From Amphiscolops sp. MND2022 (Eukaryota): a stretch of DNA of 64,000 bases. A program made the translations under genes and the position numbers. Location: positions 60,824,001-60,888,000 of the forward strand of contig OZ076409.1 in assembly GCA_964187785.1 (NCBI GenBank). Reading direction: 5' to 3'. Positions 5,719 through 32,178 of the stretch are shown here, piece by piece; the first letter of the stretch is position 1, and every line of letters begins with the position of its first letter. The notes beneath the pieces were generated by a model that did no database searches, was not told the DNA's origin, and worked only from the letters and a program-made list of their open reading frames with translations.

Positions 5719-7225
5719 CATTACAGTGGGGTAACCGGCAACGAAAATGCAGATTTTACTCGTTGTGCGGCTCGGAAAATGATGGACATGAATGAATGTA
5801 TGGGCCAAAAATGCCCATTCGTTTCGCAGCCAAAACTGTTGCCTATTGATTTCCGAGGAAGCACAAGCTACGTATTGAGTTTCTTTGCAGGAGCGATGGC
5901 TTTAATTGCCCATGCATACTCGTTGATGAGAGTAAATTGGGCAAGTAATTCCATCGCTTGCTCAAAGAATTTCAAGATTTAGATAGATCTGCCACTCGCT
6001 TCGGCCAATTCAATACACTGCTCTGACATGGAAGTGTCTCAATATTTATCTACACATGCAGATTTTCAGTGTTCAGTTTTTGGTTTATCAAATTAATTCA
6101 GTTAAAATTAATTTAGTTATCAAATTAAATTCTTAATTTTTTTTGACTAAGAAATATCAGCTCAACTATTATTTTCCCAGTATTTTAGGCGGGACAAATA
6201 AAATTGGCAATGACGAAAATCTTCGTTCCGAAGCCGATATCTGCAGGAATATAACCCTAATAATTTTTTCGTTCCGGCCAATCACTGCAAGATTATTATC
6301 GTGATAAATTTTAGTTTACTTTATTTTAATACTGTTTAATACTTAACTATTCTTTTCTTTTGTATATAATGGCAATTATGATCGGGCAATTATGATAATT
6401 ACAAATATTTTGATGTATTATGATGTGTAGGTATATTATGATGTGTTAGTATGTAATTTTGATGTATTTCATTTTTTTGGAACTTATTAAATCAGTATTC
6501 TGTGAATCGTTTTTGTTTTGGGGCGAAAGAACAGTATAGTTGATATATAATACGAGTTTAAGTTTTTTCAATCATAACAAAAAATTGTTTGATAGTTGTA
6601 CACTTACTACAGAAACAACTTTATTCAACTATTCACCTTGATTGATATATATGGTTGTTTGATATTTATTAATTTAATTGGTATCCTGTGAATCGTCATT
6701 GATTTATTTATTGACAATTAATCTAATCATCAAAAATCAGGATTCTTTGTTTTGGGCAAAAGAACAGTATAGTTGATATATAAAATGAGTTTAGGTTTTT
6801 TCAATCATAACAAAACAATTGATTTTTTCATATTTATTAATTGAGTTGGTATCCTGTGAAACGTCATTGATTTATTTATTGAGAATTGATCAAATGATTG
6901 TTCTGATATTTACCATTTTTTCAAAGTGTGAACGTTCTTATCAGTTGTTAAAGTCAACGCTCCAAGAAGTGGAATGTTACTAAATGTTCAAAGTAATTTC
7001 ACTTCCATTTTAGTGATTTAAGTGCACAAGTAAATCAGTAAGATTGTTGTAATACGGGAGCAAAAGTTTATTTGTTTTTCTGTTGATCAAACTACATGTA
7101 ATCTTGATGAACGAAACCGAATACTCGCTTCTGATTGGACGAAATTCTTTCGTCGCATATTCCGATGAGGTCATATTGATACTGTGCGTGTAAAAGTTAG
7201 TCATTTGTTTTCAATTGTCATTGCC

Positions 7226-8313
7226 ATGTTAAAAACGTTACTTTTACGGATCCGGAAGCTGGACATTGAACTAGACGACTTACCGGACCATTTGAAACAG
7301 GTTAGAGTTAATCAGTTGATTTATTAACTTTCAGGGTTGGCTTTTTAATACTTTGGTTTTAATAATTGCTTTCAATATTTTTTCTTGATAAACGTTGGTG
7401 ATTTCCTAAATAACATAACAAACAACAAAAATAAAATTAGTTTCAAAACACAAAATTGAAATGAGTTTCACTAAACATACAAATGAATGCAAATAACATA
7501 AAAACAAAATTAGTGTCAAAGAACATAAAAATAAAACCGAATACCCGGTAAAACGATCGAACTCAGAAAATTTTATCTGTAATTTCCACACTTTTTTCAG
7601 TGAATCTTTTGAATTGTGTATGCTTTTGACCACTGATATTTTCTCATTAACAATTTTATTTTTATGTTTAGTGAAACCCATTTCATTTTAATGTTATTTG
7701 AAACTAATTTTGTTTTTATGTTATTTGCTCTTATGTTATTTGGGAATTCACCGATATTTCTTAGTCAAAAAAAATTAAATATAATGCTTATATAGAAATA
7801 CACTGTTATTCTAATCTCAAAAGTTTTGCTCATTTGGTTGCCAGAAATTCGGTTACGGATATCAAAACGTGCCCATGGATTCCCGAGTTTTGGAAGGCCT
7901 TGTCGGTTACCCCACTTTAATGTAAATTTGGCAAATTTGTTGTTTTTTTCAGCCCAAATTTAGGCCAAGCCTTCATCATGATAGAGAAGCCAGTACCGAA
8001 GCAGTTCTTCAAGAACACCGCGGCGTTTCGACTGACAGAGATGAGCCAACCGTCTGTCAGAGTTAGTTTTTAACATGAACTTTTTGAAATCTTACATGTG
8101 TCTATGTTTTGACTAATGCCCGCAGTTCATCAACCACTATTTGAACACATGAATAATAGGAAAACTAAATCCGAATGTTTCACGTTTGACTACGTTGCTG
8201 CAGGAAACGAGGAAGTTGAGACCGATGATGAACAAGTCACTCTCCAGGAGCACATTTTGACTGATAGGGATCAAATCAGCCTCCTCAACGATCCGACCGT
8301 CTGCCCCAGTTAG
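7226..8313 (+). CDS. Possible small 3-exon gene (7226-7300, 7953-8061, 8204-8313), unknown product
   Basis: ATG plus phase-compatible GT/AG sites. Exons 2 and 3 are paralogous (VLQEHRGVSTDRD..PTVCQ vs TLQEHILTDRD..PTVCP). No recognisable domain. Confidence 0.3.
7391..7758. mobile_element. AT-rich MITE-like inverted repeat element
   Basis: ggtgatttcctaaataacataa...aaaattagtttcaaa at the left end is the inverted copy of tttgaaactaatttt...ttatgttatttgggaattcacc at the right end. Confidence 0.55.
7883..7922. repeat. Internal copy of the right terminus of the giant transposon
   Basis: ccgagttttggaaggccttgtcggttaccccactttaatg matches 24620-24659 with 2 mismatches. Confidence 0.9.
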
Positions 8314-8424
8314 TTCTTTTATATGATTCCTTGAGAGTGTTAATCGATATCTGCTTTTTGGAATATCCATTGGCATATTTTGAATTCAAAATTGACAAAG
8401 AAAACAAAACCCGAAGATAATATA

Positions 8425-8661
8425 CAGTAGTGATATTATTGAGAGCATCAAAAGGCAAATCTCAAAATCGAATATCTCTAAAACGGCAGTGGTTTATGAA
8501 AACTTATAAAAATAAACGTATTCTAGATTTTTATCTAGTTTACAAATATGTTTGTTTGAAGATTTTTTCGAAAATACATGTTTTGGGATGACTTTGAAGT
8601 TTTTTTTTCACCTGCCGCAGACTTTGAAGCGGCTTTGTTGCTTTTAAAAATATCACCACTG
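8425..8661. mobile_element. MITE with TA TSD (Tc1/mariner-type), copy 1
   Basis: TA|CAGTAGTGATATT...AATATCACCACTG|TA; related to 18511-18690. Confidence 0.7.
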
Positions 8662-8750
8662 TATTTGACTAGATGACAATGACTAATATTCCAACAAAAA
8701 TTATATAAAAACTGATAAGTTAAAAACAAAGTTCGAGTTTATCAATGGTT

Positions 8751-11166
8751 TTACTCGGCATTACCGCCGAAAATTCTTTTGGCTTCGGGGTCCATGTAAT
8801 CAAACATCAGCTGCTCCAGGGGTTCAATTTTCCGCTTTGCAATAAGTAGCACGTAACGCGGATTATTTTTCAAGTATGTACATTTCAATTCGACCAGTTT
8901 CATGTTACAAGCTGGGTTGGTCTTTCCACCATCAAAGGTACTTGAGTAATTGCACAATCGAGCAAGGCACCTTCTGCCATCGTTGTGGATGGGGCATATT
9001 TCCGAGGTTGCATCAATAATTCTTCCCGGCCTTGTTTTAACCTCGATGCAGTATTCTGGCTTGCGGTTCTCTGGGTCCAGACTGCAGTAGTAGTCGACGT
9101 TGTTCGTGTTTTCTTCTACATGTCCGTGGTAGTCAAAAATAACGTCATCCTTGTTAAATGGTTTGGTCGCGATTATTCCTCGACCCATTGTAGGATAGAC
9201 AACATCGCAGACGCCTGGCCAGAATTGGTTTTCGCATCTATCTTTCAAGTCATCTTGGAAGTAAGGGGTATTGCAAAGTCTCCATTCTAGATTTGGATTG
9301 AATGCTTTTTTGCGCGAACTTTGTCGAGATCTTGATACCCCAGACATTCTAGAAGAAGCATCCATGACTCTCTTTACATCTGTGAAGTGGGGCCAGTTGA
9401 CCAAGTTTGCAAAATCGATTATTCTCTCTCTTTCTTTCGCAGGGTCAGCTAGTGATGTAGGGTAGTGGCTCTTGTATTCGGCCGCCCTAATATCTGCTCT
9501 TTGATGCCTAAGTGCTTGAATTCTTTTTTCGACTACTTTCATGACCGTTCTGTCATCGTAATGTCCGCTGGGCCTCAAATGTTTTTTGACTTCCATCATC
9601 AGGTAAGATTCAGACCAAAATTCTTCTTCTGCTGAACATTTTGAAAGTGTCATCAGTTTGACAGTTCTTTCCAATCTGTCCATTTCACGTTCGGCTGGGT
9701 TTCTTGTCAAGTCGGAAAACTAGAACACGCAGATAGTTATTGAAATAAGCGAAAACTGCAAAAGGAAGATGTTTTTGATTTTCCAACTTGTGATTATGTC
9801 TTATGGTTACTATCGACTAATACAAATCAAACTGAGTCAAGTAATTCTTATCAAACAGTATTTGATTAGTTACCTGTTCAATCCGATTTCTTATGTTCCG
9901 CACTTTGAATTGTGTTTTTCCCCAGCTGTTGACAAAGAATGGCTCCGTCATGACGTAATATGGTGGTATCCCTTGACTGGGTGACTGCATGAACCTTTTT
10001 TTCTGGTCGATACCTTCAGGTTTTATGAAGTACGGTCGTACAGCTTCAAAATATATTAACATTGCTTCTCCAACAATGTGAGGAATTCTGAAGCTGTCCA
10101 AGTACCCAGCTTCATCTTCAATTTGCAAGACAAACAAGTCACTTGAGTTAGAACTTCTATTGTGCTGAATTTGAGGGACCATTTGTAAAACGGCATGAGT
10201 TGTAATGCTCAAAATTTTGCGATCTCTACACTTTGGAATAGAAAATTCCAGCAAATAAGCAATGAGGTCCCCAAACAAATTGGTTTTGTCAATGCTGGTT
10301 AGAGATTTTGCGAATTTGAATTGCTTCATTATGTCATAAAGGTCTGACAAGAGTCGCGCTTCAACAGTTGTGCATAATGTTAGGTGCACTGGGGTAATTT
10401 CTCGCAAATTTTTCTCATAGTTTTTGGGAACACATCGTTTACTTTTTGGGCCATGGTTTTCCTCATCATAATGGTTAAGTTTCCGCTTGTTCGCTATCTC
10501 CTGTTGGCATCTTTCCATGTTTGCCAAGGTGTCGTTGCAAGAACGGCTCAGCTGACTTGCCATGATATCACTCGGAGTTTGGCTCAGCTGACTTGCCGCG
10601 ATATCACTTGAAGAACGGCTCAGTTGGCTTGCCATGATGTCACTCGGAGTGTGGCTCGTACTGTCACTTGGGGTGTGGCTCCGTTGATTCGTCGTACTGT
10701 CACTCGGTGTGTGGCTCAGTTGATTCGTCGTACTGTCACTTGGAGTGTGGCTCAGTTGATTCGTCGTACTGTCATTCGGAGTGTGGTTCAGTTGATTTGC
10801 AGTGTTGATTAACAGAGGTGTCATTTGATTTGCAGCAAGTTGAGCTTGTACCATTATCGAGACGTCCGAAGGGCTATCTTCATAATTCACACCTTCTATA
10901 TTAGAGATTTGTGAAAATATCCTTTGTTCAACTTGGGTGAAACTTGGCCAGCTTTTAGATGACACACTGGGTGATCCATACAACTGTTGTGTCGAACTAG
11001 ATTGATCCAAGGGAGTACTCATGTAGTATGCAAAGTTGCTTTCATTCGGTTTAAATGGAGTCGAAAATCTTTCAAATGTTTCGTTTGGAGCAACAGAATT
11101 TGTCACAGCCGGGCTAGTCCCCAAGACAGTGTAAGAGAGAGATTTCTCATGTTGAGGAGGGTTCAT
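8751..11166 (-). CDS. SET-domain lysine methyltransferase, SETD8/PR-Set7-like (~753 aa; exons 11166-9874 and 9719-8751)
   Basis: A phase-0 GT..AG intron (9873-9720) joins ..NRIEQ|FSDLTRNP.. in frame. SET motifs GRGIIATKPFNKDDVIFDYHG, IIDAT, LARLCNYS, LIAKRKIEPLEQLMFDY. N-terminal S/T-rich region and a possible tyrosine-recombinase-like remnant. Confidence 0.88.
10530..10800 (-). repeat. 36-bp coding tandem repeat (NQLSHTPSDSTT / SQLSRSSSDIAA)
   Basis: About 8 degenerate 12-aa units within the SET gene. Confidence 0.9.
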
Positions 11167-11781
11167 CGTTATGTAAAAGAGACTGTTTTCTAGCTACTGT
11201 TTGGATTGAATGGTGAGTGCTCAATCCTTTCCTTGAGCGATCCAAATTCGAACTAATTCAAAGACGCTTCGTCAATCAACTGTGGTATATTATAATTAAA
11301 GAAAAATGGTGATCTTCGTATTAAATAGTACATATATGATAATTATTCATTTCTGATAATGAATTATTTAATTATTGAAAAAAGTAGTACATACCGTTGG
11401 TAATAGCTTTGCGGATGTGCTATTTAGATTTGCATGAAGATGAGCTCATTTAAGGACGCTTTTCAAATCAACTGTGGTGATAATTACCTGATGACGTGCG
11501 AACCTTCAAATATCGTTTCAAAATAGGGGATAAAAACCGAAGTATGAAATAACGTAAGCTAATTGGCATAAAATGAATTGAATTTTCGCCCATCCGTTTC
11601 CGAGTGATGAAAAGCAATGAAAAAGCCATGTATTTCTGCGTTTCAAATTGCCCATGCGTTTCCAAGTCTTAAATGGCATTATCATTTTGATGATCTGTTC
11701 GGATATCTGAAATAGAATTTAAAATGTCGAATTTTTTTCAAACATGTTTTTCACCAATACTAATCGGAATATGTGTTTCAG

Positions 11782-14700
11782 AATGCCGGAGAAAATTCAG
11801 CGAAAAAGTTGCGTGCCAGAGGCACATGTACAAAGACTGGGCACCAAGGAAGAGACCTGTTGAAGAACACCAGCTGGAGTTCACCTGCATTGCACAAAAA
11901 ATTTACAGTCGGGCAAATTTTATTTGTCGCTTTTGTGGATGCGGCGAGAAAGACGGAGGACCGTTCTTTAGCTATCACAGGACCGCTCAACACTCCCTCG
12001 GAAGAACTTGCACCCTGAAAGTGTTTGAGTTGCAAAGGGAGGAATAGTACCCAGGAAATTTGTTGGAACCAACACCAGAAAACATCGAGGAATTGTGCAA
12101 GGAAAGTTCTGCTTACGATTGCCTGAAGCAAAAATACAAATCGTTTTATCTTAAAGGGGAATCCGCTGTTCTTAAAAAAAAGCCCAAAGGCAATGTGCCA
12201 GGAGAGTACAGCTGGTCGGAAAAAAGACGGCGGGAGGGGAAAGGTTATTCCCATCGAATCAAAGACCTGATTAAAATCAAAGGGACCCCAAAGAAGAAGA
12301 TCGAACACCCACGATGGCAAGCGAGGATGGATTCGAGAAGAAGAAGAGAACAGAGAAGGACGTCACGTCGGTACCGTCGAGTTCACATCGAACCAGATTC
12401 TGACAGCGATGAAGAAGCCCTCCAGGAAGAGACCTGTGAGGAAGACGAAAGTGAAGAAGAAGTAGCCACACACGTTCGCCAAGGTACAATAAAATCCTAT
12501 CGTTTTACTTATATCAATTTTTCGACATACCAGTTTGACTACTTGCCAAACGATTCCACTGATACTTATCGAAAATATTCGAAAAACATCCACAAATCTT
12601 CTCAATAACTTTATGATGATTTTGACGATTTTTGTTTCAGATTCCGACAGCAATGAAGCCCTCCAGGAGGAGACCTATGAGGAAGACGAAAGTGAAGAAG
12701 AAGTAGTCACACACTTTCCCCAAGAAGAGAACCGTCAAGAAGACGAAAGTGAAGAAGAAGTAGCCACACACGTTCGCCAAGGTACAATAAAATCGTATCG
12801 TTTTACTCATATCAATTTTTCGACATACCAGTTTGACTACTTGCCAAACGATTCCACTGATACTTATCGAAAATATTCGAAAAACATCCACAAATCTTCT
12901 CAATAACTTTTTAATGATTTTGACGATTTTTGTTTCAGATTCCGACAGCAATGAAGCCCTCCAGGAGGAGACCTATGAGGAAGACGAAAGTGAAGAAGAA
13001 GTAGTCACACACTTTCCCCAAGAAGAGAACCGTCAAGAAGACGAAAGTGAAGAAGAAGTAGCCACACACGTTCGCCAAGGTACAATAAAATCCTATCGTT
13101 TTACTCATATCAATTTTTCGACATACCAGTTTGACTACTTGCCAAACGATTCCACTGATACTTATCGAAAATATTCGAAAAACATCCACAAATCTTCTCA
13201 ATAACTTTATGATGATTTTGACGATTTTTGTTTCAGATTCCGACAGCAATGAAGCCCTCCAGGAGGAGACCTATGAGGAAGACGAAAGTGAAGAAGTAGT
13301 CACACACTTTCCCCAAGAAGAGAACCGTCAAGAAGACGAAAGTGAAGAAGAAGTAGCCACACACGTTCGCCAAGGTACAATAAAATCCTATCGTTTTACT
13401 TATATCAATTTTTCGACATACCAGTTTGACTACTTGCCAAACGATTTCACTGATACTTATCGAAAATATTCGAAAAACATCCACAAATCTTCTCAATAAC
13501 TTTATAATGATTTTGACGATTTTTGTTTCAGATTCCGACAGCAATGGAGAAGCCCTCCAAGAAGAGAACCGTCAAGAAGATGCAAGTGAAAAAGTAGCCA
13601 CACACGTTCGCCAAGGTATAATAAAATCCTATTGTTTTTCCTATATCAATTTTTCTACACCAATTTGTGAACTACTTGTCAAACGATTCCACTGATACTT
13701 ATCGAAAATATCCGAAAAACATCCAATCTTCTCTAACATTATAATGATTTTGACGATTTTTGTTTCAGATTCCGACAGCAATGAAGCTCTCCAAGAAGAG
13801 AACCGTCAAGAAGATGAAAGTGAAAAAGTAGCCACACACGTTCGCCAAGGTACAATAAAATCCTATTGTTTTTCCTATATCAATTTTTCTACACCAATTT
13901 GTGAACTACTTGTCAAACGATTCCACTGATACTTATCGAAAATATCCGAAAAACATCCAATCTTCTCAATAACTTTATAATGATTTTGACGATTTTTGTT
14001 TCAGATTCTGACAGCAATGGAGAAGCCCTCCAAGAAGAGAACCGTCAAGAAGATGCAAGTGAAAAAGTAGCCACACACGTTCGCCAAGGTATAATAAAAT
14101 CCTATTGTTTTTCCTATATCAATTTTTCTACACCAATTTGTGAACTACTTGTCAAACGATTCCACTGATACTTATCGAAAATATCCGAAAAACATCCAAT
14201 CTTCTCTAACATTATAATGATTTTGACGATTTTTGTTTCAGATTCCGACAGCAATGAAGCTCTCCAAGAAGAGAACCGTCAAGAATTTGAAAGTGAAAAA
14301 GTAGCCACACACGTTCGCCAAGGTACAATAAAATCCTATTGTTTTACCTATATCAATTTTTCTACACCAATTTGACTACTTGTCAAACGATTCCACTGAT
14401 ACTTATCGAAAATATCCGAAAAACATCCAATCTTCTCTAACTTTATTATGATTTTGACGATTTTTGTTTCAGATTCCGACAGCAATGAAGCCCTCCAAGA
14501 AGAGAACCGTCAAGAAGATGAAAGTGAAAAAGTAGCCACACACGTTCGCCAAGGTACAATAAAATCCTATTGTTTTACCTATATCATTTTTTCTACACCA
14601 ATTTGACTACTTGTCAAACGATTCCACTGATACTTATCGAAAATATCCGAAAAACATCCAATCTTCTCTAACTTTATTATGATTTTGACGACTTTTGTTT

Positions 14701-17332
14701 CAGATTCTGACAACGATGAAGAAGCCCTCCAGGAAGAGATCTGTGAGGAAGACGAAAGTGAAAAAGAAGTAGCCACACACGTTCGCCAAGGTACAATAAA
14801 ATCCTATTGTTTTACCTATATCATTTTTTCTACACCAATTTGACTACTTGTCAAACGATTCCACTGATACTTATCGAAAATATCCGAAAAACATCCAATC
14901 TTCTCTAAGTTTATTATTGTTTTGACGATTTTTGTTTCAGATTCTGACAACGATGAAGAAGCCCTCCAGGAAGAGACCTGTGAGGAAGACGAAAGTGAAG
15001 AAGAAGTAGCCACACACGTTCGCCAAGGTACAATAAAATCCTATCGTTTTACTTATATCAATTTTTGTACACCAATTTGCCTACTTGTCAAACGATTCCA
15101 CTGATACTTATCGAGAATATTCGAAAAACATCCACAAATCTCAATAATTTTATAATGATTTTGACGATTTTTGTTTCAGATTCCGACAGCAATGAAGCCC
15201 TTCAGGAAGAGACCTGTGAGGAAGACGAAAGTGAAGAAGAAGTAGCCACACACGTTCGCCAAGGTACAATAAAATTCAGTTTTCATAAAATATTGTTTCT
15301 CAGTTATTTGTTAAAAGAGATGAAAGGTAAAAAGCAAAAAAAATCAAAAAATCTTTACTTTTAAAAATAAAATCGGATTGAGTTAATTTTTAAAAAAATC
15401 GGATTTTGTTCCATCCATGTGTTCAAGGCAGTTTTACTAATACTTGTGCATATGTGTTTTTAGACACGACTTCGACTTGTTTACCTATATCAATATTACG
15501 TATCGAAAATATTCGACAAACAACCAATCATCTCAATAACGTTAAATTGATTTTGACGATGTTTGTTTCAGATTCTGACAGCAATGAAGAATCCCTCCAG
15601 GAAGAGAACCGTGAGGAAGACGAAAGTGAAGAAGTAGCCACACACAATCCCCAAGGTACAATAAAATCCTATTGTTTTACCTATATCAAAATTTCTACAT
15701 ACCAATTTTACTACTTGCCAAACGAATCCACTGATACTCATCAAAAGTATTCGAAAAACATCTACCAATCATTTAAAAAACTTTATTATGATATTGACAA
15801 TTTTCGTTTCAGATTCCAACAGCTACGAACAGGTTCAAGCAGAAGATGAAGAAGTTTCTCTGGTTGCATTTGTGGATGAAGCAGAGCATCATGAGCTGCT
15901 GGATGTAATCAGAGAATCTTCCGGGTCCGAGATGCGAGTTTGCTGCACCAATGTTTCCAGCAGCGAAATAGAGGAGGAGCTGCAGCGGAAAAGAGCCTGT
16001 ATTGTTCGAGGACATATGGATGGTATGAAATTGCCCAACATCAACTTTGGAGCGCGAAGAAACATCTTCGAAGACTGTCTACACGCAGAAGATGTACAAT
16101 TATCTGTCCGAATGTACAAACCTGTCAGTGTTCGTTTTTGGCTTCGTCTTTTTAACTTCACCAATGAAAACCGAACATTTAAAAAATATTAGGGTTTTTA
16201 TATTTTAAAACCAAAATTGTAGATCTTCGAAGTGTATTCTTTTTTCATATACAACACATGTCTATTTCAGCTGCAAAAACTCCTGTGTTTGACACTCTCA
16301 GGAAAAGATTTTGTAAATGCCATTGAGTTTGGAGCTATGAGCGGCCCAATGAATGTCTTTGATCTTAGCTCCAGTCTCACAAAGAACTTGCATTTCGATG
16401 TACCAACGGCAGTTAAAGAACTTTCAGTGTCTCATTTATTCAATTTTGAGCTGGAGCAAAATTGCTATATTCTTCTCAGTCAAAAAGGTTCCATTACACC
16501 TTGGCATGTTGACTACACGAATACCAGCGTCTTTTACCATCTTCTTCACGGTAAAAAAGAGTTTTTCATGATTCCTGGAACAGTTCGAAACCAAGAAATT
16601 CTCGAGAATTGGTGCATTGAGGCAACAAAACAAAATGTTTTCCTACCAAGTGACACCCACCTCCAAAGTCAAGTGTTTAAAGTGACGATAACAGGCGGCG
16701 AGTCAATGATCATGCCAGCAGGCATGATACATATGGTCAGAACCTGTGCGGACAGCGTGGCCGTGGGATTCAATTTTCTCACCATCTGTGATCTAGGTAA
16801 TTTTGAAATTCAGTTTTCATATAATTGTTTCTCAGTTGTTTGTTAGAAGAGATAAAAGGTAAAAAGCAAAAAAATCGAAAAAATCTTCATTTTTAAAATT
16901 AAAATCGGATTAAGTTAATTTCTCAAAAAAATTCGGGTTTTACTTCTTCTATGGGTTCGAGGCAGTTTTACTAATGCTTGTGCATATTTGTTTTTAGACA
17001 CGACTTTGACTGTTTACCAGAGGGAACGGGACAATGATGAACCTCTTGAGAAATGTTTCCCACATTTCTTATCGTTAATGACGAAAGTTATTCTAGAGAG
17101 TGCCATTGGGAACTGTAGGCTAATGAAATGGGAGCTTCTGGCCAAAGCACTACATGTCCTCAGCTTCAATTCCAAAAATGACAGCCGATCCAAGAGCAAT
17201 CGACGAAAATTTGTGCAAACTATCAACCGGTACATGTCTCTCAATTTCCCAAACAGGAACATATCATTAACTCACCTATTTCAAATTGTTGACAAAAAAC
17301 TCGGTCGAAACACTTTTTGGTCTCTTGATTGA
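11782..17332 (+). CDS. JmjC histone demethylase, KDM2/KDM7 (JHDM1/PHF8)-like, multi-exon; one in-frame TAG at 12045-12047; first exon not located
   Basis: Exon 11782-12483 (C/H zinc-finger-like, then basic tract), 12 acidic phase-1 exons, then 15813-16123, 16271-16796 and 16998-17332, all with compatible GT/AG phases. JmjC motifs SITPWHVDYTNTSVFYHLLHGKKEFFMIP and MPAGMIHMVRTCADSVAVGFNFL (H-x-D...H triad and 2-oxoglutarate-binding T/K intact). Post-JmjC helix VYQRERD...CFPHF. Confidence 0.85.
12397..15830 (+). repeat. Tandem exon+intron array (period ~298 bp, then ~231-239 bp) inside the JmjC gene
   Basis: Acceptors tttcag|ATTC precede exon starts at 12641, 12939, 13237, 13532, 13769, 14005, 14242, 14473, 14704, 14941, 15180, 15572 and 15813. 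Donors are CAAG|gtacaa/gtataa. Exon peptide DSDSNEALQEE..EDESEEEVATHVRQ. Confidence 0.95.
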
Positions 17333-17733
17333 TTAGTTCGTTGAAAACCATTTTCGAGATGAAATTTTTTGTTTTACATATTCCTAACCTTTATTATTTT
17401 ATTTCATTGTATTGATATATATTATTATTAAATCTCGAAACTTGTTTTCAGCGAAGTATTTCAGCACTTGATGCAATTTCGCAGTTTACTGTAGTAATAC
17501 TTTAGAATTTTGAATTCCAGTTCTTGGTCTTTGAAAGATTTGGTTTTATTCTTTCTTTTCGGTTTTTACTTAGTATTTTGCGCTGCTACTTTTTGGTACG
17601 TTTCAATTTTGAATTTGTTTAAAACAATTCGAATGATTCAATTAAATTTTGACAATAAAAACAGGTAAAAATAATTTATTATTGTTCGAATCAAAGTTTT
17701 CACGATTTATCAATTATGATTATCAAATGATTC

Positions 17734-20700
17734 TCAGTCTGATGAGTCTGAGGATGATTCATCGTGTTCTTTCTGAGCGTCATTCATTTTTTCTTGTTCG
17801 CGCTTCTTCAGCATTTCTCGTCGTTTACGAAGTACCGATGTTATAGCTGAAGTTGTGTTTTGTAGTTCGGGATTCCTCTGAAGAAGGAAAATTTTGCGAT
17901 GATCACGAACAGAAGTTGATGGGATGTCTGGCCCTGGTTTGAACGCAAAAGACTCCACATCCAAAATTGTTGAAGTTTCGATACTTTTCAAAATATAGTC
18001 AACGGATAGAAACGTAAGTCCACGACTGGCCAAGTGTCGTAAAACGTAACTGGTTCGACTTGGTTCATTTAGTTTCCTTTTTTTGCATTTTCCTTTGGCC
18101 ATAACTTCTGTCACTTGTGGCAAAGAATCACACGACGTTGTTGCACTAATAAGATCTGTGTCATTTTGGAGAACCACGTAAATGTGTGGCAACTTGGAGT
18201 GTCTGGAGAGGAGAGTATTCAATGCTGCTCGTTCTAGAACTTTCCCTCCCGCTTTTTTGATAACTTTTTTGAGACACTCAGCGGGTCCAAGAGTTTTTCC
18301 ATCTTGGTTTTCATGTTGAATTCGTTGCTCTTTATTGAATTTCCCGTGCAGAAAGAATCTCGATCCTGGAGCAAACGGAATATTGTTTAGTTCTGTGAAA
18401 ACAATTGGTTATATACCGAACTTCGAATATGTAACAACAGGTTTCTAAGGTGGTCCTTCCATTGCCGAACGTGCTTATTGCCGTATAATTCTAAGACGGT
18501 TTTGCATGTACAGTAGTGAGATTATCAAAAACTTAGTATTTTCGAAAACGCCTATTTTTACAGCGTGGTTTCATTGAGACTTTAATATAATTTCTCAATC
18601 AAAACATATCAAGTCCTTCAGTCAAATGCTTTTTGATAGATATTTGATTCTAAAATTTGCCTTTTGTTGCTTTTAATAATATCACTACTGTATTCTATTT
18701 TCTTTGCTACGATCGTTCTGAACAGGTATGTAATTGCATCATTCAAAACTCACTGTTAAGCGAAGAACTAATTGCAAATAATAAGTTGAAAACATAAAAA
18801 TAAGTAGATTGAGATTGGATTTCTCTCTCCGCCAGAGAGAATTCCAATCTCAATCTACTCACTAATTGCCACAGTTGTTGAATGCGCGGTCGTCACCGGC
18901 AATCGACATCTATGGCAAGTAATACCAGCCAATGGCTACCACACACAATACCAGACACAATACCAGCCACTGGTTACCGAAGGCTGCACCAACAGCGGCG
19001 CAGAGAAGCGAACCTGTATACCAAGAGCGAACGAGCGGCGGAACGACGGAACGTCGCACGAAGTAACCACTACGCCAGTGGTACTTGGAATCTGTTGCTG
19101 TTTTGAGGAAGTTTTTCATCCGAGTAACTTAGGACTAATATTTGTCAACGTGTTGCGGTGCAATACAAATATTCAGCAAAACTCAAGTCAAACATTTGTT
19201 CAACGATCCACTACATTTATTTCGGAGTCGCAAGAAAAGCAAAATTCACACTATATTGTTGGTTTATCCAACTAAATTTCGCTAAATTTATACCACTTAG
19301 GTTTCATAACCAAAAAAGTTGGACGTGGGCATATAGGTACAAAAAAAATCCTTACCCAAGAAAAGGCGGGACTTCTCTCGAACTTTTCCAACGGGAATGA
19401 TGGCTTTCTCAGTTGGTCCCAGGGAGTCTAAAAAAGATAGGTTCACCTCTATGGGTTCATTGAAAAGCCGTTGATGGCAAAGTGAGAGCTGTTCGTCGAT
19501 TGTGCCTTCCAAAGACGAAAACCGGAGACCAGAACAGAAAGTGAAAAACATTTCGAGAAACATGGGGTCGGCGTGTCGAACTGTCCCTCCCCCTCGCATG
19601 GTCTTTTGCTGAAAGTCTCTATGGACATGATGATTTGATTTTTCGGGGCCTTCGCACAGGTGGTTAAAGGGTGATTCAATGTAGCCTCCTTCTAACAGCT
19701 GGGGAATCAGGCACAGTTTCAGTCTGTACGGTGTCAAACCTAGTTTTACATCGAACAGTACAATCGAAATGTGATAGTGGATTTCTGACCAGTATTTATA
19801 GTCGGAAAAGTCCTGTTCTTCGAATTTCTTCCTCGTCCTCATCAGCACGGTAAGCTGATTTAGTGACTTTCTCCAGAGTTCAGCTGCAACCAAAAGTTTC
19901 ATTTGACATGGGCTTTCGATATTTTCGAATGAATTGGGATGAAGATTTTTCAACACATTCATGCTTGCACTTTTTGTACCCGACAAGGCTCCAACAGTCT
20001 TGTTCTCGGAAAAAACTCCTTCGAACAGTTCATGCTGAACACCAGCCTCAGCAAGTTCGTACATATCAGCAATGCCAGTGATAGCTTCTCTGCCACTAAG
20101 GGAAATGGGAGCACATTTTTTGTTGCGTTTGTCAATGTCAAATTCGAAGCCAGGCTCTTTCCAACCTCTCTCGGTCAAATTGCGCTGAAAATTTTCCCTA
20201 ATATAATCAACTGTAGCTGAGTCATCTTCAGATTGGAGAATTTTCAACTCCATGAACTTTCTAATGTCTCCCTCGACACACCTTGTTATTGCATGAGTGC
20301 CGTCAGGACAAACGCATCTGATGTCTGGCAAAAACGTCAAACTTTCATGAGGAATGGTGGTTCGAAATGGTAGGCGAACATCACCTCGATGTCCACTTTT
20401 TTCGTGCACGGTTTCTGGTTTAACTGAATCGTCATTCCCAAGATACATCTGCAATTTTGATGGATTTTCTTCACTCTCCATGTGATCAACAGAGGTTCCA
20501 ATGAGAAGGCGATTTAGGAATGGTTGATCTCCACTGTATGTTAAAAGGACTCCGGCGTCATGGAGTTGTTTCGTCTGCTGGTAAAGCCAAGAGGAATCTT
20601 GCTCACCTAGTTGTAGGTACCCGACATTTTGCTCTAGCAACCAACGACCGTCGTGACCTGTAAACACGTATTGTAAAGTGTGCGAAGCTAACCTAGAGCT

Positions 20701-21700
20701 AAATTATATTTAAAGATTCAGCAGGACAAAATAGCAGAACATACCTTGGAAAACAGCAAAAGAGAAGAGTGCATCTGATGACTGATTGCTGATAGATGTT
20801 CCTTCGAGAAAACGGAAGGCCATTCGAGTTTGATCCTTTTTCCCTATTTGAACACCATCTCCCCAAATATCAACTTTCAGACCTTGCAAATCAGTTCTTC
20901 CTTTGAACAGAATGAATGTCATGACTTTGATAGCACGTACAAGATCAATTCTGAATCCCGAGAAAGTGTTTTTTGGTTTGAATAGGGATATAAACTTTGA
21001 AATCATCGGTTTTGACATCTCTTTGATCGCCGTATAACCAGGAATTAGTTGTTTTTGACCCAGTCCATCGACATGGAAAGTTTTTTTCAGCGTGTTGATC
21101 ATATTTATCCAACTACCAGTTTTAGTACAGATAAATATGTCTGACTTCAGCTTTTCGTACGATAAATAGTTTGAAAAAACACCCTTAACCAGAGCCTTGG
21201 CTTCAAATTGATGCAGAGAGGTCTTCTGGGCCTTAGTATGAATCCGCTTTTGTTCTGTAGCTGCTAATGTTGCGAGAATTGTATGCATCTTCTGACTGAA
21301 ACCTGATTCAGGTTTAGAAAACTGCTCCACTGGGATTGTTGGCATTGGAAGTGGATTGACAAAAGGTTGTGAGTCGGGAATTAGCTGCGGCGTATTTGGG
21401 AAAAAATAGGACACGTATCTTCTTCGTAATTGTGTCCATGGAAACCCACTTTGTAAACCACGAACAATTATTATTTGCAATATTCCAATTGCAACAAAGC
21501 AAGTTTTTTTTGTTTATTACACAATCTTCGAGTTTTAATTCAGTTCCTTCAATTACTATTTCGATCGCGCTTTTCAGTTTTCGAGATTTTTCTCTTATAA
21601 TATGCCCAGCAAAAACATCCAAAATTTTAGCATCCACAAAACTTTTTCCATCAATTGTTTCAGTGTAATCGTGCAGAAGCTTCTCGGGGTGTATTGTCAT
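17734..21700 (-). CDS. DDE transposase (RAG1/Transib/CMC-like) with C-terminal BRCT domain (~962 aa; exons 21700-20745, 20657-19356, 18365-17734; one frameshift in the T8 run at 21504-21511)
   Basis: Ordered motifs KVDIWGDG (D1), YSGDQPFL (D2), PDGTHAITR (DxxH), LTPY and LCEGPEKSNH (E), comparable with RAG1 SCDG / GYDEK / DALH / ITNY / SEGNESGNK. Spliced LFLG|SRFFLHGKF...LKKVIKKAGGKV...LSVDYILKSI is BRCT-like. Both introns are phase 1 and in frame. Confidence 0.78.
18511..18690. mobile_element. MITE with TA TSD, copy 2, in transposase intron 2
   Basis: TA|CAGTAGTGAGATTAT...ATAATATCACTACTG|TA; its right ~70 bp match the left end of 8425-8661 in inverted orientation. Confidence 0.7.
18803..18859. 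repeat. Near-perfect hairpin (25/26-bp stem, CCGCC loop)
   Basis: agtagattgagattggatttctctct-ccgcc-agagagaattccaatctcaatctact. Confidence 0.9.
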
Positions 21701-21789
21701 CCTGATTGTCGTACGTCGAAAGTTATATTGGAAGTTATTCTAGTAGTTGTTGTTTTTTCAAAAGCGTATTGACACTTTATCGTTTCCAC

Positions 21790-22150
21790 ACTAGCGTTTC
21801 CATTCTTGAAATGCGTCTGCTGGTTCGCAAAGCGTTTGACAAAAAATTATAAAATTATCGTATTACGTTATTGATGTTATTGATTATATCGGAAATAAAT
21901 CGAGTAATTGTAGTTTTAGCGTGTTCACACTCACGTGGATTTTGAAATGCGTCTGCTTGATCGAAAAGCGTTTGACAAAATATTATAAAATTATCGTATT
22001 ACGTTATTGATGTTATTGATTATATCGGAAATAAATCGAGTAATTGTAGTTTTAGCGTGCTCACACTCACGTGGATTTTGAAATGCGTCTGCTTGATCGA
22101 AAAGCGTTTGACAAAAAATTATAAATTTATCGTGCTACGTTTTGGATGTT
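21790..22150. repeat. 136-bp tandem repeat (~2.6 copies) between the divergent transposase and Tudor genes
   Basis: atgcgtctg at 21811, 21947 and 22083 with near-identical intervening sequence; the motif recurs near 22188 and 22210. Confidence 0.9.
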
Positions 22151-22409
22151 CCGTGCAAAAGTGTCTGGGGGTTTATTGTCATTTAAAATGCGTCTGACAA
22201 TTAATTAATATGCGTCTGACATTTAAAAATCATCTTATGCGTATGTAACGATTTGAGTCGATCAAACTCACTTGATAATCATTTGTCCCGATAACGATTT
22301 TATTTGCTCAAACTTGCTTGATAAACATTAGTGGCAAATGCAATACTGAAAATACTCGTTTACGAAATTAAATTTCTTGAAAAATAAAGCACTAATTTCA
22401 TTAATTGAA

Positions 22410-23978
22410 ATGGATTTCATCAGTGTTTTTGATATGAAAGAGCAAGTTCAAGTTTTGGATCCTGCAACAAAAATTTGGGAAGATGCTCGCATCATTGGGT
22501 TTGAAGGATCATTTGGAATCCGAGTGAAATACCTCAATTGGCCCGATAAACTTGTGAAGCGATTCGGATCAGACAGAATTGAAGTGTCCCCCAACACACC
22601 CCAAAATTGCTGGCCGGTTAGAAAATGTATAGTATTACAAGATGTCCGCGGTCGCCGGAAATCCAAGAAGCCAGCAGAAACCGTTTTTGACATCCCCGAC
22701 CCAAGAAAGCGCCAACTAGGGGACAGAATCTTTTTCACTGGGACATCACGGAAATCACCAGCGGACATTCCTAGTTTGGAAGAGGTTAGAAAAGATGCCG
22801 AGGAGTCGAAGCTGCTGAACTCGGGTTATGTTGTCATGAATGACCCATTCCAGCAAAATATGGCTGTTTCCTTCGACGGGCGCACAAAGGACATCCAGTT
22901 CATCGACTATGAACAAATTCGTCCGAAGAACTGGACTCATCCTGACACGAGGCAGCCTTCAGAGTTTGATTCGGAGCCCGAAGATGTCCAACCATCGCGG
23001 CAAAAAAAGAGAGTAGTAGAAACAGATGCAGAACCAGAACCCACTATAACCACTCCCAGACAGAAAATTGATATTGCCGCATATATTGCGAGTCTTGCCG
23101 AGAAAGACGAACTTCTGGACATTGTACCCTGCGAAAATGGTATTGCATCAGCAGGTAAATGATCAATTTGATTATTACTAGTCTAACTTCTACGGTACTA
23201 AAAAAAATCAAACAAAAAAACTGAAACCAAGTTTTTTGCCACGAGCGTCCTCTCGAAAAATTTACATGCTTATAGAAACTTTGTCGCATAAATCTTTCTC
23301 AAGTGGTTAATAAATTATTATTACTAAATGAAACTGAATATTCGCATTCTGTTATCAGGTGACCACGTTACGATAAACATTAGGAGCACGGTCTTCACGA
23401 TGAAATTGGAGAAGATATGGTTCGACGTGGAGATGAAGAAGGCCATGGCGAAACTGGTCGATGAAGAAGACAGATGCTACTCCATCACTTACCCAGCTGT
23501 AAAGCTAGTGTTGACAGAAGCAAACTACATGAAGCAGAAAGCTCTGGACTTGTCCGCAGCTTGTTCACCTGTGAATAGAGCTTTTCATTACCTGTCAGCG
23601 CTGAAACCTTTGGTCGGGATATCCCAGTCCAAACGCACAATGATGAATCAGGACATTTGCTTGGTTGACGAAATTTCCAAGAATATCTTTTTAATGGGTT
23701 CTGGACACCAAGTCAAATTTCATATAGATCCTGACTCAGAAAAGTTCCACAAAAATGCAGAATGGGACAGTACCCTAGGCCGACAATGGGATATGCTCCC
23801 ACCAATCTTCCCTAAAACTTTCTGCCACATTATCAAAAGCCTAAAATTTTCAATTAACAACGATTTTCTGCTGAAAACTGTGCGAGTATCTATCGATTGT
23901 TTCCAGGACAATTTAAATGGCGATGACGAATATCGTCGTTCCGCAGCCAATAATTGCAGAAGTCAGTTTAGTTTTTAA
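22410..23978 (+). CDS. Tudor/chromo-barrel (Royal family) domain protein (~454 aa; exons 22410-23154, 23359-23978)
   Basis: N-terminal FDMKEQVQVLDPATKIWEDARIIGFEGSFGIRVKYLNWP fits the F-x-x-x-x-x-V-x-V-x-D...W-x-x-A-x-I...V-x-Y-x-x-W barrel pattern. A phase-1 GT..AG intron joins ASA-G-DHV in frame. Confidence 0.68.
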
Positions 23979-24659
23979 ATTTATTCATTTTTTGTATCCA
24001 TTGCCATAACAATTGTGATATCTTTTCCATTATGTTTCTTAATTGAATCAGTCTCTTGTGAATCATTTTGTTTTCGATTTGGGGCAAAAGAACAGTAGTG
24101 GAGCGACATTGTAATAATTGACAACAATAACATTAAACAATTGAGTCAAACAAAAAGTAATGAGGATTAAATTGTTCAAAAAGACAAGCCCCCGGAAAGA
24201 TCTTATGATACCAATCTAATCTTCTTGTAATCTCCTAATCTTCCTATTGATTGATATATAGTATGAGTTTAAGCTTATTCAATTATATTAAATGAGAGTT
24301 GTTCGATTTAAGGTGGAATGATGAGAAGCATGGAAGCTTGATAATCATTATTCAAATTTATTTCGAAAAAAAGTACCTGGGAAGGGTTTACTAAAATTCT
24401 GATAATCGGCAAATCCTTATCTTTAGTTGATTAGGTATATCTCGGACATTTTTTGATATGTATTCAAAGTTTCTATCAAATTGAAAGGCCACACTTGGTG
24501 GGAAACGAATGGACAGATTATGTTCAACAATTAGTTGACTTCGCCCATGCGTTTCCGAGATTTTCAGTTATGAACAACAAAACTCGCCCATGCATTCCCG
24601 AGTTTTTGCCCAACATTTTCCGAGTTTTGGAAGGCCTTGCCGGTTACCCCACTGTAATG

Positions 24660-29780: not shown

Positions 29781-30483
29781 TTAAAAAGACTTGTTAAGGG
29801 TTGGAGACGTACAAAATTACTTTGCATTCGCGGATAATTATCCCTAGAGTTTTCCAAGTCTCCTTTGTTGTAAGATATTAACCAAAAGCATAACTGTGAA
29901 AGACATCGGCAATATATTTACAAACCAGACGCCCGCTAAACATCGGGATATTTTCCGCTTTGTCAAAAAAATCAGACGAGAGGAAAGATTCGAACCCAAA
30001 ACCTACCCTGGTTAAAAAAATGCGTTCCTTGCAAGGATCTTGCAAGATTTTCTTTCAAGGTCTTGCAAGATAATGCATTTTTCTGCAAGACATCTTGCAA
30101 GAATCTTGCAAGAAAAAAAATTTCCTTGCAAGATTCTTCCAAGGAGAAAAATTTCGTGGAAAGTTCTCGACAATTTTTTTATTTTTTATATTCATTGTTT
30201 TTGACTTCAAGTTGACTACTGCATCGTGACTATTAGATTCTGTCACAGAACGGGGTTTACTTACTAGAGGATTCAACCACCAAAAAGATGCAAACTCTAG
30301 AAAATATCTCTAAAAGTGTGATCTTAGTGAAGTTATTTGAAAAGTAGTAGTACATTTCAGTGACGCAACATCTAAAAAACAATTTCAGAGTATCCTGAAA
30401 ATTTTTTCCAACCAGATGTGTTATGTACCTGTTGACAAGCAATTGATAAGATTAAAAGCAAATAAGAATCGTTCCGTTTCAAG

Positions 30484-30552
30484 GTAGCTTGGCCTAGCGG
30501 TAGAATACAAGGCCGGTATTCGACCGGCCTAGGTTCGATTCCCGGACAGGTA
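30484..30552 (+). ncRNA. tRNA-derived Pol III-like unit (SINE head), not a canonical tRNA
   Basis: A box TGGCCTAGCGG, B box GGTTCGATTCC, central hairpin gccggt-attcg-accggc; acceptor stem not convincing. Confidence 0.5.
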
Positions 30553-31687: not shown

Positions 31688-32178
31688 ATCCGAAAAAAAT
31701 AGTACAAAATTTGCTCTCTAAAGATCTTGCCGAAAAATCTGACATCATTATTTGGCATGATGTGCTGAATAACAGTATTTCTAAACATGAGAGCAACATT
31801 TATCGAGCTTTAACAATCCCGCAATTATTAGAAATTTTGAAATCGATTGAAAATAAACTCCGGGCTCTAGTGTACTGCCACCGATTTCGTACACCGAACA
31901 TTTATCAAACTTTGAAGGAAATAGAAATTTCCACGAACATTAAAGTGTTCAGCATCGTTGAAGATTTCATTTCCACGAGAAAACAGAAAGATCCCGACTT
32001 TCTCAAAAAACTCAAGGCATTACACCAGAGCCCCGAGATTGAAATAAAGCATATTGATTTTATTCTGAGAAAAGAAAGCGAGCTTGACGCCATCACCGAC
32101 AAAAGCCGCCCCAAGCGGCCTAGTAAGCGCGCCCGAAAGGCCATCAAGAGCGCAGCTGCCGGCGCTGCTTCGTCCTAG
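31688..32178 (+). CDS. 5'-truncated accessory ORF upstream of BEL gag-pol (possible SGNH/esterase-like fold)
   Basis: Open frame NPKKIVQNLLSKDLAEKSDIIIWHDVLNNSIS...LVYCHR...LKALHQ with a basic C-terminal tail. The fold is a guess. Confidence 0.45.

Follow-up and report, generated by a model that had tools for sequence, protein, structure and literature searches.

A block of 18,941 bp lying within a 64,000-nucleotide stretch of the Amphiscolops sp. MND2022 genome (contig OZ076409.1; this whole stretch is called the window) appears to combine a transposase with genes resembling a histone-methylation writer, eraser and reader. This raises the questions of whether the block is a single mobile element, to which transposon lineage it belongs, and what its chromatin genes might do for it.

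A recently amplified cut-and-paste element

The element (family A, 5719..24659, unstranded) is delimited by terminal inverted repeats (TIRs) and by comparison with 10 other full copies. The left TIR (5719..5741, +, beginning CATTACAG) and the right TIR (24637..24659, -) are 23 nt each and 100% complementary, such pairs being expected by chance about 2e-4 times in 64 kb, and a genome search allowing up to 2 mismatches returned 291 matches, compared with none when the reversed control was used. Sequence and copy comparison identify the AC on either side (5717..5718 and 24660..24661, both +) as a 2-bp target duplication. The insertion interrupts a decayed copia-type retrotransposon, the 5' part of which lies at 4739..5716 (+) and the 3' part at 24662..26421 (+). 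Its Pfam domains are collinear across the two flanks, zf-CCHC, Pol_BBD and then a weak rve integrase match (E 0.16) that stops at the left TIR, SH3_retrovirus (E 1e-12) and RVT_2 (E 3e-13) following the right one, and the integrase motif runs on across the insertion point. The view of the first-pass annotation, that this is one mobile unit inserted into a copia target, is thus borne out. An internal copy of the right end (7880..7922, -; 93% over 43 bp) is left over from an earlier end, either nested or abortive.

The 10 further full copies, which share gene order and differ in their 2-bp duplications as the same annotation predicted, are 18.0-18.95 kb long, 98.6-99.7% identical over long aligned blocks, and have ends identical to those of the window copy. 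They are spread with it over five chromosome-scale contigs, in different flanks. A 2-bp duplication matches exactly in 11/11 full copies, with 8 different dinucleotides, and none reaches 3 bp except in one TTT run; the duplications tilt towards AT, beyond which no target preference was seen. There are about 28 young copies, and the median pairwise distance is 0.24%. Family A is a recently amplified cut-and-paste DNA transposon, and its cargo, carried in family A copies and at the loci of a sister family B described below, does not consist of single-copy host orthologues.

Four spliced genes are arranged as two head-to-head pairs, as had been annotated, with starts at 11166 (-) and 11724 (+) for SET and JmjC, and at 21700 (-) and 22410 (+) for the transposase and the Tudor-like gene. 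The unstranded intervals between starts, 11167..11723 (557 bp) and 21701..22409 (709 bp, holding a 140-bp tandem repeat), are putative bidirectional promoters. Pfam recognises SET (E 2.5e-8), JmjC (E 1.1e-9) and BRCT_2 (E 3.3e-6) among the window ORFs, and has no match for the transposase ORF or the Tudor-like ORF there. Whole-gene frames are open in 9/11 copies for SET, 6/11 for JmjC and 10/11 for the Tudor-like gene, and cargo-gene lesions are private to single copies, as is the stop in JmjC exon 1 of the window copy (12045..12047, +; TGG in 10/10 other copies). Transposase exon 1 breaks frame at an A-run (21504..21511, -) of 8 A in the window copy and 9 in most young copies. The window copy is frameshifted here, and 26/28 young copies are out of frame; the frame is kept in the copies at C9:51.03 Mb and C7:33.78 Mb, as it is in several of the older ones. 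Neither this frameshift nor the JmjC stop of the window copy was noted in the first-pass annotation, and the description of the element as autonomous consequently fails for that copy, which is not autonomous and would be a passenger, mobilised either by copies that are in frame or by slippage along the A-run.

The transposase and its lineage

Transposase exon 1 (20745..21700, -) encodes the first catalytic Asp (DIWGDG), exon 2 (19356..20657, -) the second Asp (YSGD), CPDxxH and the catalytic Glu region (EGPEKSNH), and exon 3 (17734..18365, -) a BRCT domain (about 17947-18285) that is likewise C-terminal in single-ORF homologues. By analogy with RAG1 we take the DDE triad to be the WGD Asp, present in 17/17 alignment rows covering the site, the SGD Asp (26/26) and the EKS Glu (36/36). 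The folds discussed for the Tudor-like protein and the transposase are those of modelled homologues (38% and 55-61% identity) of the window's spliced proteins. The transposase homologue P0007 (Foldseek E 7e-6) matches RAG1 at VIA Z 14.7 (rmsd 4.2 Å, 416 aligned) and HzTransib at Z 13.2, and the BRCT model matches 53BP1, BRCA1, MDC1 and XRCC1 at Z about 11.

The zinc-type motifs located between the second D and E of related transposases were sought in 34 sequences. For C(2)C, any CxxC occurs in 2/34, with no conserved column pair; for H(3-4)H, any pair occurs in 9/34, at scattered positions; the only conserved His residues are that of CPDxxH and those flanking the Glu at a spacing of ten residues. 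No Pfam transposase family is matched by 29 homologues or by the window exons, and the transposase tree comprises family members only. Membership of EnSpm/CACTA or Transib was rejected, as the ends begin CAT not CAC, the duplication is 2 bp (Transib duplicates 5 bp) and a Pfam transposase match is absent. HarbingerS, which has a PIF/Harbinger-type transposase and a 3-bp duplication, was rejected despite the shared presence of a SET gene, given the RAG1-type fold and 2-bp duplication found here. In PMC12730594 the CMCT clade unites EnSpm/CACTA, Mirage, Chapaev, Transib, Plavaka, ESTA, Lanisha and RAG1, and is defined by a DDE triad, C(2)C and H(3-4)H motifs, 5'-CA..TG-3' termini and a 2-5 bp duplication. 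The element shares with this clade, so described, the triad, the RAG1/Transib fold (in the homologue model), the 5'-CA..TG-3' ends and a duplication within that range, but has no conserved C(2)C or H(3-4)H and no Pfam transposase match, and adds the C-terminal BRCT and three chromatin genes. We tentatively regard the transposase as an undescribed RAG1/Transib-fold lineage with a DDE triad, C-terminal BRCT, CA..TG ends and a 2-bp duplication of any sequence.

The chromatin genes and their age

SET exon 1 (9874..11166, -) encodes low-complexity 12-residue repeats and then a tyrosine-recombinase-like segment (about 9874-10440) with no PDB match; an Atlas feature scoring 0.93 ties it to clusters, 13% of them with Phage_integrase, which is no more than a lead. 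Exon 2 (8751..9719, -) contains the SET domain (about 8796-9185) of the 753-residue protein, with the motif RLCNYS. SETD8 accounts for 14/15 PDB matches, in keeping with the SETD8-like assignment first made, at low identity (E 5e-5 with a single-sequence query). The GxG, YxG, RxxN and final catalytic Tyr are present in alignment with SETD8 (as GRG, DYHG, RLCN and FDY). In family A, NYS replaces NHS at 42-43 of 44 listed sites (42 TAC, 1 stop, 1 AAC), while the His of RxxNHS is kept in sister families B, C and D. This need not abolish activity, because SET cofactor contacts are made by backbone atoms and a conserved Asn (PMC3178901), and family A keeps the Asn. The product-switch residue is Phe in 4/4 families, where wild-type SETD8 chains read LLYDY; under the Tyr/Phe rule for SET domains, as given in that source, the sequence argues against a pure H4K20 monomethylase.

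The JmjC gene (11724..17332, +; 16 predicted exons, about 1,035 aa) encodes in order a Cys/His-rich N-terminus, a basic stretch, acidic repeats and a KDM2/7-like JmjC domain. The acidic tract derives from twelve tandem exon-intron repeats (12641..15655, +) in which the exon lengths in nt are all divisible by 3 and each exon specifies a unit rich in Asp and Glu; the donor at 16123 reads GTAAGT in an older copy. The catalytic exon (16271..16796, +) has the HVD...H triad and the cofactor Thr, Tyr and Lys as in KDM2A, to which it aligns at E 5e-18 with the HxD...H iron triad and 2-oxoglutarate residues present, and the triad is intact in families A and B. As the annotation had it, the nearest relatives are KDM2/7 enzymes (14/14 PDB matches being of KDM2A, PHF8, KDM7A or PHF2 type). 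The N-terminus finds zf-C2H2_4 as its best Pfam match, a weak one (E 0.2), where host relatives have PHD, CXXC and F-box domains. The DNA-targeting modules of both the SET and JmjC proteins are thus weak calls.

The Tudor-like gene encodes 454 residues, with two predicted Tudor/SH3-type barrels in exon 1 (22410..23154, +) and most of a third, with a further C-terminal domain, in exon 2 (23359..23978, +). The model of homologue P0173 (pLDDT 74) matches the SETDB1 triple Tudor (E 1.3e-4); its barrel 1 matches the UHRF1 Tudor (VIA Z 8.0, rmsd 1.5) and its barrel 3 BAH, PWWP and Tudor domains (VIA Z 8-10). These matches agree with the Tudor-type fold first suggested, and the wider set takes in Spt5 KOW and further SH3 barrels that are not methyl-lysine readers. 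W23, Y41 and W44, which presumably correspond to chromo-barrel cage residues, are aromatic in 26, 25 and 25 of 26 rows, many closely related. The protein is predicted to have a three-barrel Tudor-type fold and is a putative methyl-lysine reader. From their best solved-structure matches (SETD8/KMT5A, KDM2A and KDM7/PHF8, and the SETDB1 triple Tudor) the three element proteins differ in domain architecture, low identity and multi-copy, element-bound state, the SET protein also in its NYS and Phe switch. The 'complete chromatin-editing kit' of the first-pass annotation therefore holds for gene content but overreaches as a claim of activity, with Tyr for the His of RxxNHS in family A and a reader consisting of a predicted fold and conserved aromatics.

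Family B, at 33-41% protein identity to A, preserves the full set of four genes, with order and orientation unchanged, at 15/15 loci tabulated (of 21 B-type SET matches), and in families C and D the genes for SET, the Tudor-like protein and the transposase are retained within about 14 kb. No JmjC was found near C and D among the listed candidates (150 of 1,450 and 150 of 1,717 scored), so the eraser may be optional. SET, Tudor-like and transposase-BRCT form the most conserved core, present in 4/4 families, and three metagenome contigs carry a Tudor-like gene head-to-head with a transposase. Cross-family codon identity is 53-66% at second and 30-39% at third positions, and three comparisons with older copies, over few sites, give dN/dS of 0.36-0.41. 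The four-gene order in B and the three-gene core in C and D indicate, on sequence comparison, that the cargo is old and maintained, and put the case on firmer ground than the first-pass annotation could.

What the cargo may do

We infer that the accessory proteins keep the chromatin of the element itself open, so that it can be transcribed and excised. There is precedent in PMC12730594 for chromatin enzymes that transposons carry and that are proposed to counter silencing. Here the JmjC protein, targeted by its Cys/His-rich N-terminus and aided by its long acidic tract, would strip a methyl-lysine mark that silences and lies within the KDM2/7 range; the SET protein, targeted by the integrase-like fragment, would place a mark on lysine (SETD8-like and probably more than monomethyl); and the Tudor protein, co-expressed from the transposase promoter, would bind marked nucleosomes and recruit the transposase there. 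Taken together with the RAG1/Transib-fold lineage and long-carried cargo, we consider this account plausible, at slightly short of an even chance. SETD8 and KDM7-type enzymes act in opposition on H4K20, and the simple anti-silencing model has no need of such opposed activities, which counts against it.

A break-repair or target-site module copying the host H4K20 damage axis, a proposal that draws on established functions of SETD8, 53BP1 and RAG2, is a rather unlikely but substantial competitor. The Phe-switch SET would make H4K20me2-type marks at breaks or targets, the Tudor protein would read them like 53BP1, or as the RAG2 PHD does for RAG1, the BRCT would dock repair proteins and direct hairpin-type ends to end-joining, and the JmjC would reset the mark. 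The conserved core, the SETD8 matches of SET, the repair-protein matches of the BRCT and the RAG1 match of the transposase all suit this proposal; against it, target preference is limited to the AT-rich tilt, one BRCT alone is generic, and the Tudor protein is matched best by SETDB1, BAH and PWWP domains rather than by 53BP1. Opposite-sign writer and eraser in one element would also suit a private switch on non-histone substrates, with SET and JmjC acting on element proteins (the lysine-rich stretches of JmjC and transposase) or on silencing factors of the host, and with the Tudor protein reading the resulting marks so as to time transpososome assembly, and the fixed NHS-to-NYS change and low identity to SETD8 would fit a catalytically dead family A SET. 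We judge this pair of possibilities improbable, both enzymes being nearest to histone-directed families and the retained Asn, with otherwise backbone cofactor contacts (PMC3178901), speaking against a dead enzyme. Neutral captured cargo of the Pack type, that is functionless host gene pieces, would accommodate the broken cargo (SET in 2/11 copies, JmjC in 5/11, Tudor-like in 1/11) and the few sites behind dN/dS, but is very improbable and largely refuted by the restriction of lesions to single copies and by the open frames, splice sites, catalytic residues and four-gene order retained between families with saturated synonymous sites. Misassembly, or a host gene cluster flanked by chance repeats, is refuted by the 11 dispersed copies with exact duplications, short of a systematic assembly fault.

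To our knowledge animal DNA transposons are thought mostly passive in silencing evasion, encoded counter-measures coming mainly from plants and fungi. DNA transposons of fungi that carry TET/JBP (PMC12730594), and VANDAL/VANC of plants (PMC10398659), likewise encode factors thought to undo host silencing, theirs acting on DNA methylation, whereas the window element has histone-type lysine enzymes of both signs and a putative reader. Separate SET histone methyltransferase genes are already described in the DNA transposons HarbingerS and oomycete MuDR (cited in PMC12730594), which differ in transposase fold and target duplication and to which our element adds JmjC and Tudor-like genes. The earlier supposition that no described animal DNA transposon has all three activities stands to the extent that the SET, JmjC and Tudor-like combination was not found in a literature search (Repbase being outside its scope), and needs qualifying for the SET-carrying elements just named. 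Royal-family methyl-lysine readers occur on other mobile elements, as chromodomain and PHD fusions on transposon proteins (10.1101/2021.11.30.470311) and in the Tudor-bearing Gypsy-10_Ec32 (PMC12477816); those are single fused domains, mostly of retrotransposons, in contrast to a stand-alone three-barrel gene in a DNA transposon.

Multi-copy SET and JmjC sequences are very numerous in the genome, and elements of this kind may therefore swell the counts of chromatin-enzyme families in genomes like it. Like RAG1-RAG2/ProtoRAG, which has a kelch-PHD partner and a 5-bp duplication, the element couples a recombinase of RAG1 fold to a partner gene whose product may be a reader of methylated histone, but here the partner is of Tudor type, the genes are head-to-head and the duplication is 2 bp. 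A lineage of RAG1 fold that has a repair-type BRCT and lacks the CMCT zinc motifs bears on how RAG-like recombinases gained chromatin-reading partners. A bolder and doubtful proposition is that these are a new lineage at superfamily level, RAG1-like, zinc-motif-free, BRCT-bearing transposons across several marine-type eukaryote genomes, encoding a working writer-eraser-reader circuit that would shield the element from silencing and guide transposase and break repair, as a counterpart of RAG2 and the H4K20-53BP1 axis. With about 28 near-identical copies, cargo intact in many, and three diverged sister families in one genome, this animal offers a direct test of whether a transposon rewrites its own histone marks.

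Boundaries, copies and age of the element

The transposon at 5719..24659 (18,941 bp) is bounded by perfect terminal inverted repeats (TIRs) of 23 bp, 5719-5741 and 24637-24659, a pairing with a chance expectation of about 2e-4. An AC dinucleotide flanks it on left and right, and the sequences beyond are the collinear 5' and 3' parts of a single decayed copia-type retrotransposon, which confirms the first-pass annotation's view of one mobile unit in a rejoinable copia target. A TIR pattern search of the 1.07-Gb genome, allowing up to two mismatches, found 291 matches, against 0 for the reversed control, and in the first 100 places 20 facing TIR pairs are spaced 18.0-19.2 kb, the window copy among them. 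The window copy was compared with 10 of the 19 other facing pairs (n = 11); these 10 are 18.0-18.95 kb long and 98.6-99.7% identical over long blocks. A matching 2-bp duplication is present in all 11 (AG, AA, TA, AA, TT, AA, CT, CA, GA, TT, AC), bearing out the prediction of multiple copies with different duplications; the observation of the element is confirmed, and its interpretation at family level is strengthened. Pairwise distance among the 11 copies outside the repeat array is 0.14-0.35% (median 0.24%) and nearly all differences are unique to a single copy, so the amplification of this family, family A, is a recent burst.

Exon searches of the genome identify about 28 young copies and, besides decayed remnants, about 17 older copies at 85-97% protein identity. 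Internally deleted short derivatives of family A are present at three genomic places (L009, L024, L025). On contig C2, L026 and L027 are right-end fragments separated by 53 kb; their flanks are identical, and they represent a segmental duplication, not separate insertions. Within the window copy, 7880-7922 is an internal copy of the element's right end, which suggests nesting or end capture as the way in which the element reached its large size.

Other repeats share the window. A second TIR element, 30006-37598, has ends CCCTGGT...ACCAGGG between TA dinucleotides, a 34-bp inner inverted repeat and CTTGCAAG subterminal arrays, and inside it lies a BEL/Pao retrotransposon ORF (32707-37230: Peptidase_A17, DUF1759, RVT_1). 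This BEL/Pao element and the spliced genes of the window point to an animal host. Five 1.57-kb units, 95-100% alike, are arranged in tandem at 45047-52536, and a two-copy direct repeat (59066 and 62317, 3.25 kb apart) is 99% identical over at least 300 bp.

Encoded proteins

Gene models were drawn from GT-AG sites and compared across the 11 copies, all splice junctions being predicted. The SET gene has two predicted exons (753 aa) and is open in 9/11 copies, the Tudor-like gene two (454 aa; open in 10/11), the JmjC gene 16 (about 1,035 aa, including twelve frame-neutral acidic repeat exons) and the transposase gene three (963 aa in its in-frame state). The JmjC frame is open in 6/11 copies, in two of which the motif finder passed over some repeat exons. 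Pfam confirmed SET, JmjC and BRCT_2 in the window, and gave no match for the transposase or the Tudor-like gene.

All 14 PDB matches of the SET domain are to SETD8/KMT5A (best E 5e-5, single sequence), as are 14 of 15 with a four-family profile (E 8e-12), and the GxG, DYHG, Asn and final Tyr residues are retained. In family A, however, RLCNYS replaces RxxNHS, the codon at the His position encoding Tyr at 42 of the 44 sites listed (one stop, one Asn), whereas the diverged sister families B, C and D of the same genome keep His. SET cofactor contacts are made by backbone atoms and Asn, so that Tyr at the His position need not abolish activity, and by the Tyr/Phe rule Phe at the product switch permits methylation beyond the first (PMC3178901). 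The switch residue is Phe in all four families, and by this rule their products would therefore be allowed to exceed monomethylation. The proposed SETD8-type writer thus stands as to its closest relatives, and less well as to the NYS of family A and a switch residue unlike that of a monomethylase. N-terminal to the SET domain, 9874-10440 (-) is a tyrosine-recombinase-like segment, conserved at 54% in the homologues P0202-P0204; its Atlas score of 0.93 with integrase-like clusters (13% Phage_integrase) is a lead only, and it has no PDB match.

The JmjC assignment to a KDM2/7-like eraser holds up at the level of sequence: 14/14 PDB matches are KDM2A, PHF8, KDM7 or PHF2 (best E 5e-18), and the alignment to KDM2A preserves both the HVD...H triad and the cofactor residues. 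Stop-codon readthrough or an odd splice site in this gene was rejected, as a canonical donor is seen in an older copy. The acidic repeat occupies 12641-15655 as twelve exon-intron units, each exon keeping the frame and encoding an acidic peptide; because unit number differs among copies, the length of the tract would be tunable through recombination or exon skipping.

The Tudor-like protein received no assignment from Pfam, PDB sequence-profile or Atlas searches; a kinase-like identity (best Atlas score 0.82 to kinase-like clusters) was disregarded. Homologue P0173 shows that both Tudor exons form one gene, and its model (55-61% identity, pLDDT 74, pTM 0.50) has three small barrels and an unassigned C-terminal domain. 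Foldseek places the SETDB1 triple Tudor first (E 1.3e-4), followed by Agenet, MBT and also Spt5 KOW. By VIA, in which Z under 8 may be generic, barrel 1 matches the UHRF1 Tudor (Z 8.0, rmsd 1.5 Å) and barrel 3, which is split by the intron, matches BAH, PWWP and Tudor domains (Z 8-10.3). Barrel 1 has three positions that are aromatic in 25-26 of 26 rows. The Tudor-type barrels of the proposed reader are thus upheld in a homologue model, and its role as a reader is likely on that prediction. The window copy has a private substitution at 23608, a conserved Arg to Pro in the C-terminal helix.

Single-ORF homologues place the BRCT exon within the transposase gene. An exon 2 protein search returned 200 cluster representatives (E <= 0.001), none of the 10 checked bearing an informative name; 29 transposase homologues had no match to Pfam transposase families, and querying PDB with a profile of the transposase alignment gave only weak matches, to BRCT. 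The model of homologue P0007 (38% identity to the window transposase, pLDDT 79) matches RAG1 and HzTransib (Foldseek E 7e-6; best Z 14.7, rmsd 4.2 Å, 416 residues), while its C-terminus matches BRCT domains (Z about 11), and none of the alignment rows covering the Asp, Asp and Glu positions departs from these residues. From this model the transposase is predicted to work like the RAG1/Transib type. The CMCT clade, to which these belong, is defined by C(2)C and H(3-4)H motifs, CA..TG ends and 2-5 bp duplications (PMC12730594). The element's CA..TG ends and 2-bp duplication fit, but neither motif is a conserved feature of its transposase, which we do not assign to a named CMCT family; there is a fair chance that it is a new lineage. 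No relatives were found in phage records and viral contigs, and in a quick tree without outgroup families A and B sit among other transposase relatives. The genome contains 881-1,025 BRCT-transposase candidates and at least five further such families, 34-45% identical, in some of which a single open frame exceeds 1,000 codons.

Lesions of the window copy

The window copy is not the autonomous element that had been proposed: JmjC exon 1 carries a stop found in 0/10 other copies, and the frame of transposase exon 1 shifts at the A-run 21504-21511. The earlier interpretation is therefore supported in part, failing on autonomy and holding for gene content and a multi-copy family. At 45 sites listed genome-wide, the A-run is interrupted and in frame in 17 of older type; among 28 of young type, 17 have 9 A and nine have 8 A, both out of frame, and two are in frame. 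These two (contigs C9, 51.03 Mb, and C7, 33.78 Mb) have exon 1 open frames of 343 and 342 codons, arose by different changes, and show no stops in transposase exon 2 or in the SET, JmjC and Tudor exons searched. An assembly error is unlikely and the frameshift probably real, given that 17 further runs, each 7-9 bases long, keep a constant length in most copies. Both short frameshift products occur in the protein collection, probably from the same assembly, and were left uncounted. With a real frameshift, the young burst may have been powered in trans, by slippage where the run has 9 A, or by a truncated protein whose translation begins further along. The 9-A run, predominant in the burst, could act as a site of slippage or of -1 frameshifting.

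Age and possible role of the cargo

Family B is 33-41% identical to A in protein. Its table comprises the 15 B-type SET matches with a B-type JmjC match, the other 6 of 21 being excluded with no JmjC listed nearby; at all 15 loci the JmjC, transposase and Tudor-like genes lie at constant distances, ordered and oriented as in A and as anticipated for the gene order of other copies, the transposase piece being confirmed separately. Family B has intact motifs in both SET and JmjC. Its ends were not found by relaxing the TIR pattern of family A (first 100 of 207 places), and its probable mobility is judged from dispersed near-identical copies. Among the genome matches listed, the A JmjC query finds family B at 1.3e-25 against 2e-18 or weaker for others, and the B query finds A at 1.9e-26 against 7.6e-23 for the next; being mutually best outside matches, the two genes are consistent with having been captured once and then inherited along with the element. 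In families C and D the SET and Tudor-like genes are arranged head-to-head and the transposase adjoins them, with no JmjC nearby among the best 150 of 1,450 and of 1,717 candidates. The 1,450-1,717 JmjC candidates genome-wide include several near-identical dispersed groups, with open frames of 412, 456 and 468 codons, which show no linkage to families A-D and are probably other transposon families with JmjC genes. On 12 metagenome contigs of 1.1-7.4 kb the Tudor-like gene is head-to-head with the transposase on three (L059, L061, L064), and no SET or JmjC gene is present.

Comparable cargo is known. DNA transposons carrying a SET gene (HarbingerS, oomycete MuDR) and fungal elements with a TET eraser are already described (PMC12730594); chromo, PHD and SET domains are commonly fused to transposon domains (10.1101/2021.11.30.470311, the main text of which has 0 occurrences of JmjC, though its supplements may list cases). 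A Gypsy element has been called the first transposable element with a Tudor domain, and in Ectocarpus giant EnSpm and KDZ elements carry additional genes and have dead transposases (PMC12477816). A term search of the giant-transposon review PMC6431247 gave no histone or demethylase passage, and the passages and terms searched in PMC12859917, PMC9911081 and PMC6579520 add nothing further. We found in the literature no DNA transposon combining SET, JmjC and Tudor genes and no RAG1-like transposase bearing BRCT; an entry in Repbase may exist for either.

Against older A copies dN/dS is 0.40, 0.36 and 0.41 (leaving out the out-of-frame JmjC pre-exon row), and across families second codon positions are 53-66% and third positions 30-39% identical. 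The cargo of these families is ancient and maintained, and its neutral carriage unlikely.

From the element's mobility, content, conservation, motifs and homologue folds we infer, tentatively, that the cargo may serve self-directed chromatin control. A repair or target-site module, by analogy with RAG2 and the SETD8-53BP1 axis, seems somewhat unlikely. A non-histone switch, or a SET enzyme dead in family A, where Tyr replaces the NHS His beside otherwise retained residues, is improbable, and a neutral cargo is very improbable. Self-directed chromatin control and a repair or target-site module are mutually compatible. Under chromatin control by the cargo, the eraser would remove a silencing mark, and the writer and reader would mark and hold the element for its own transposase.
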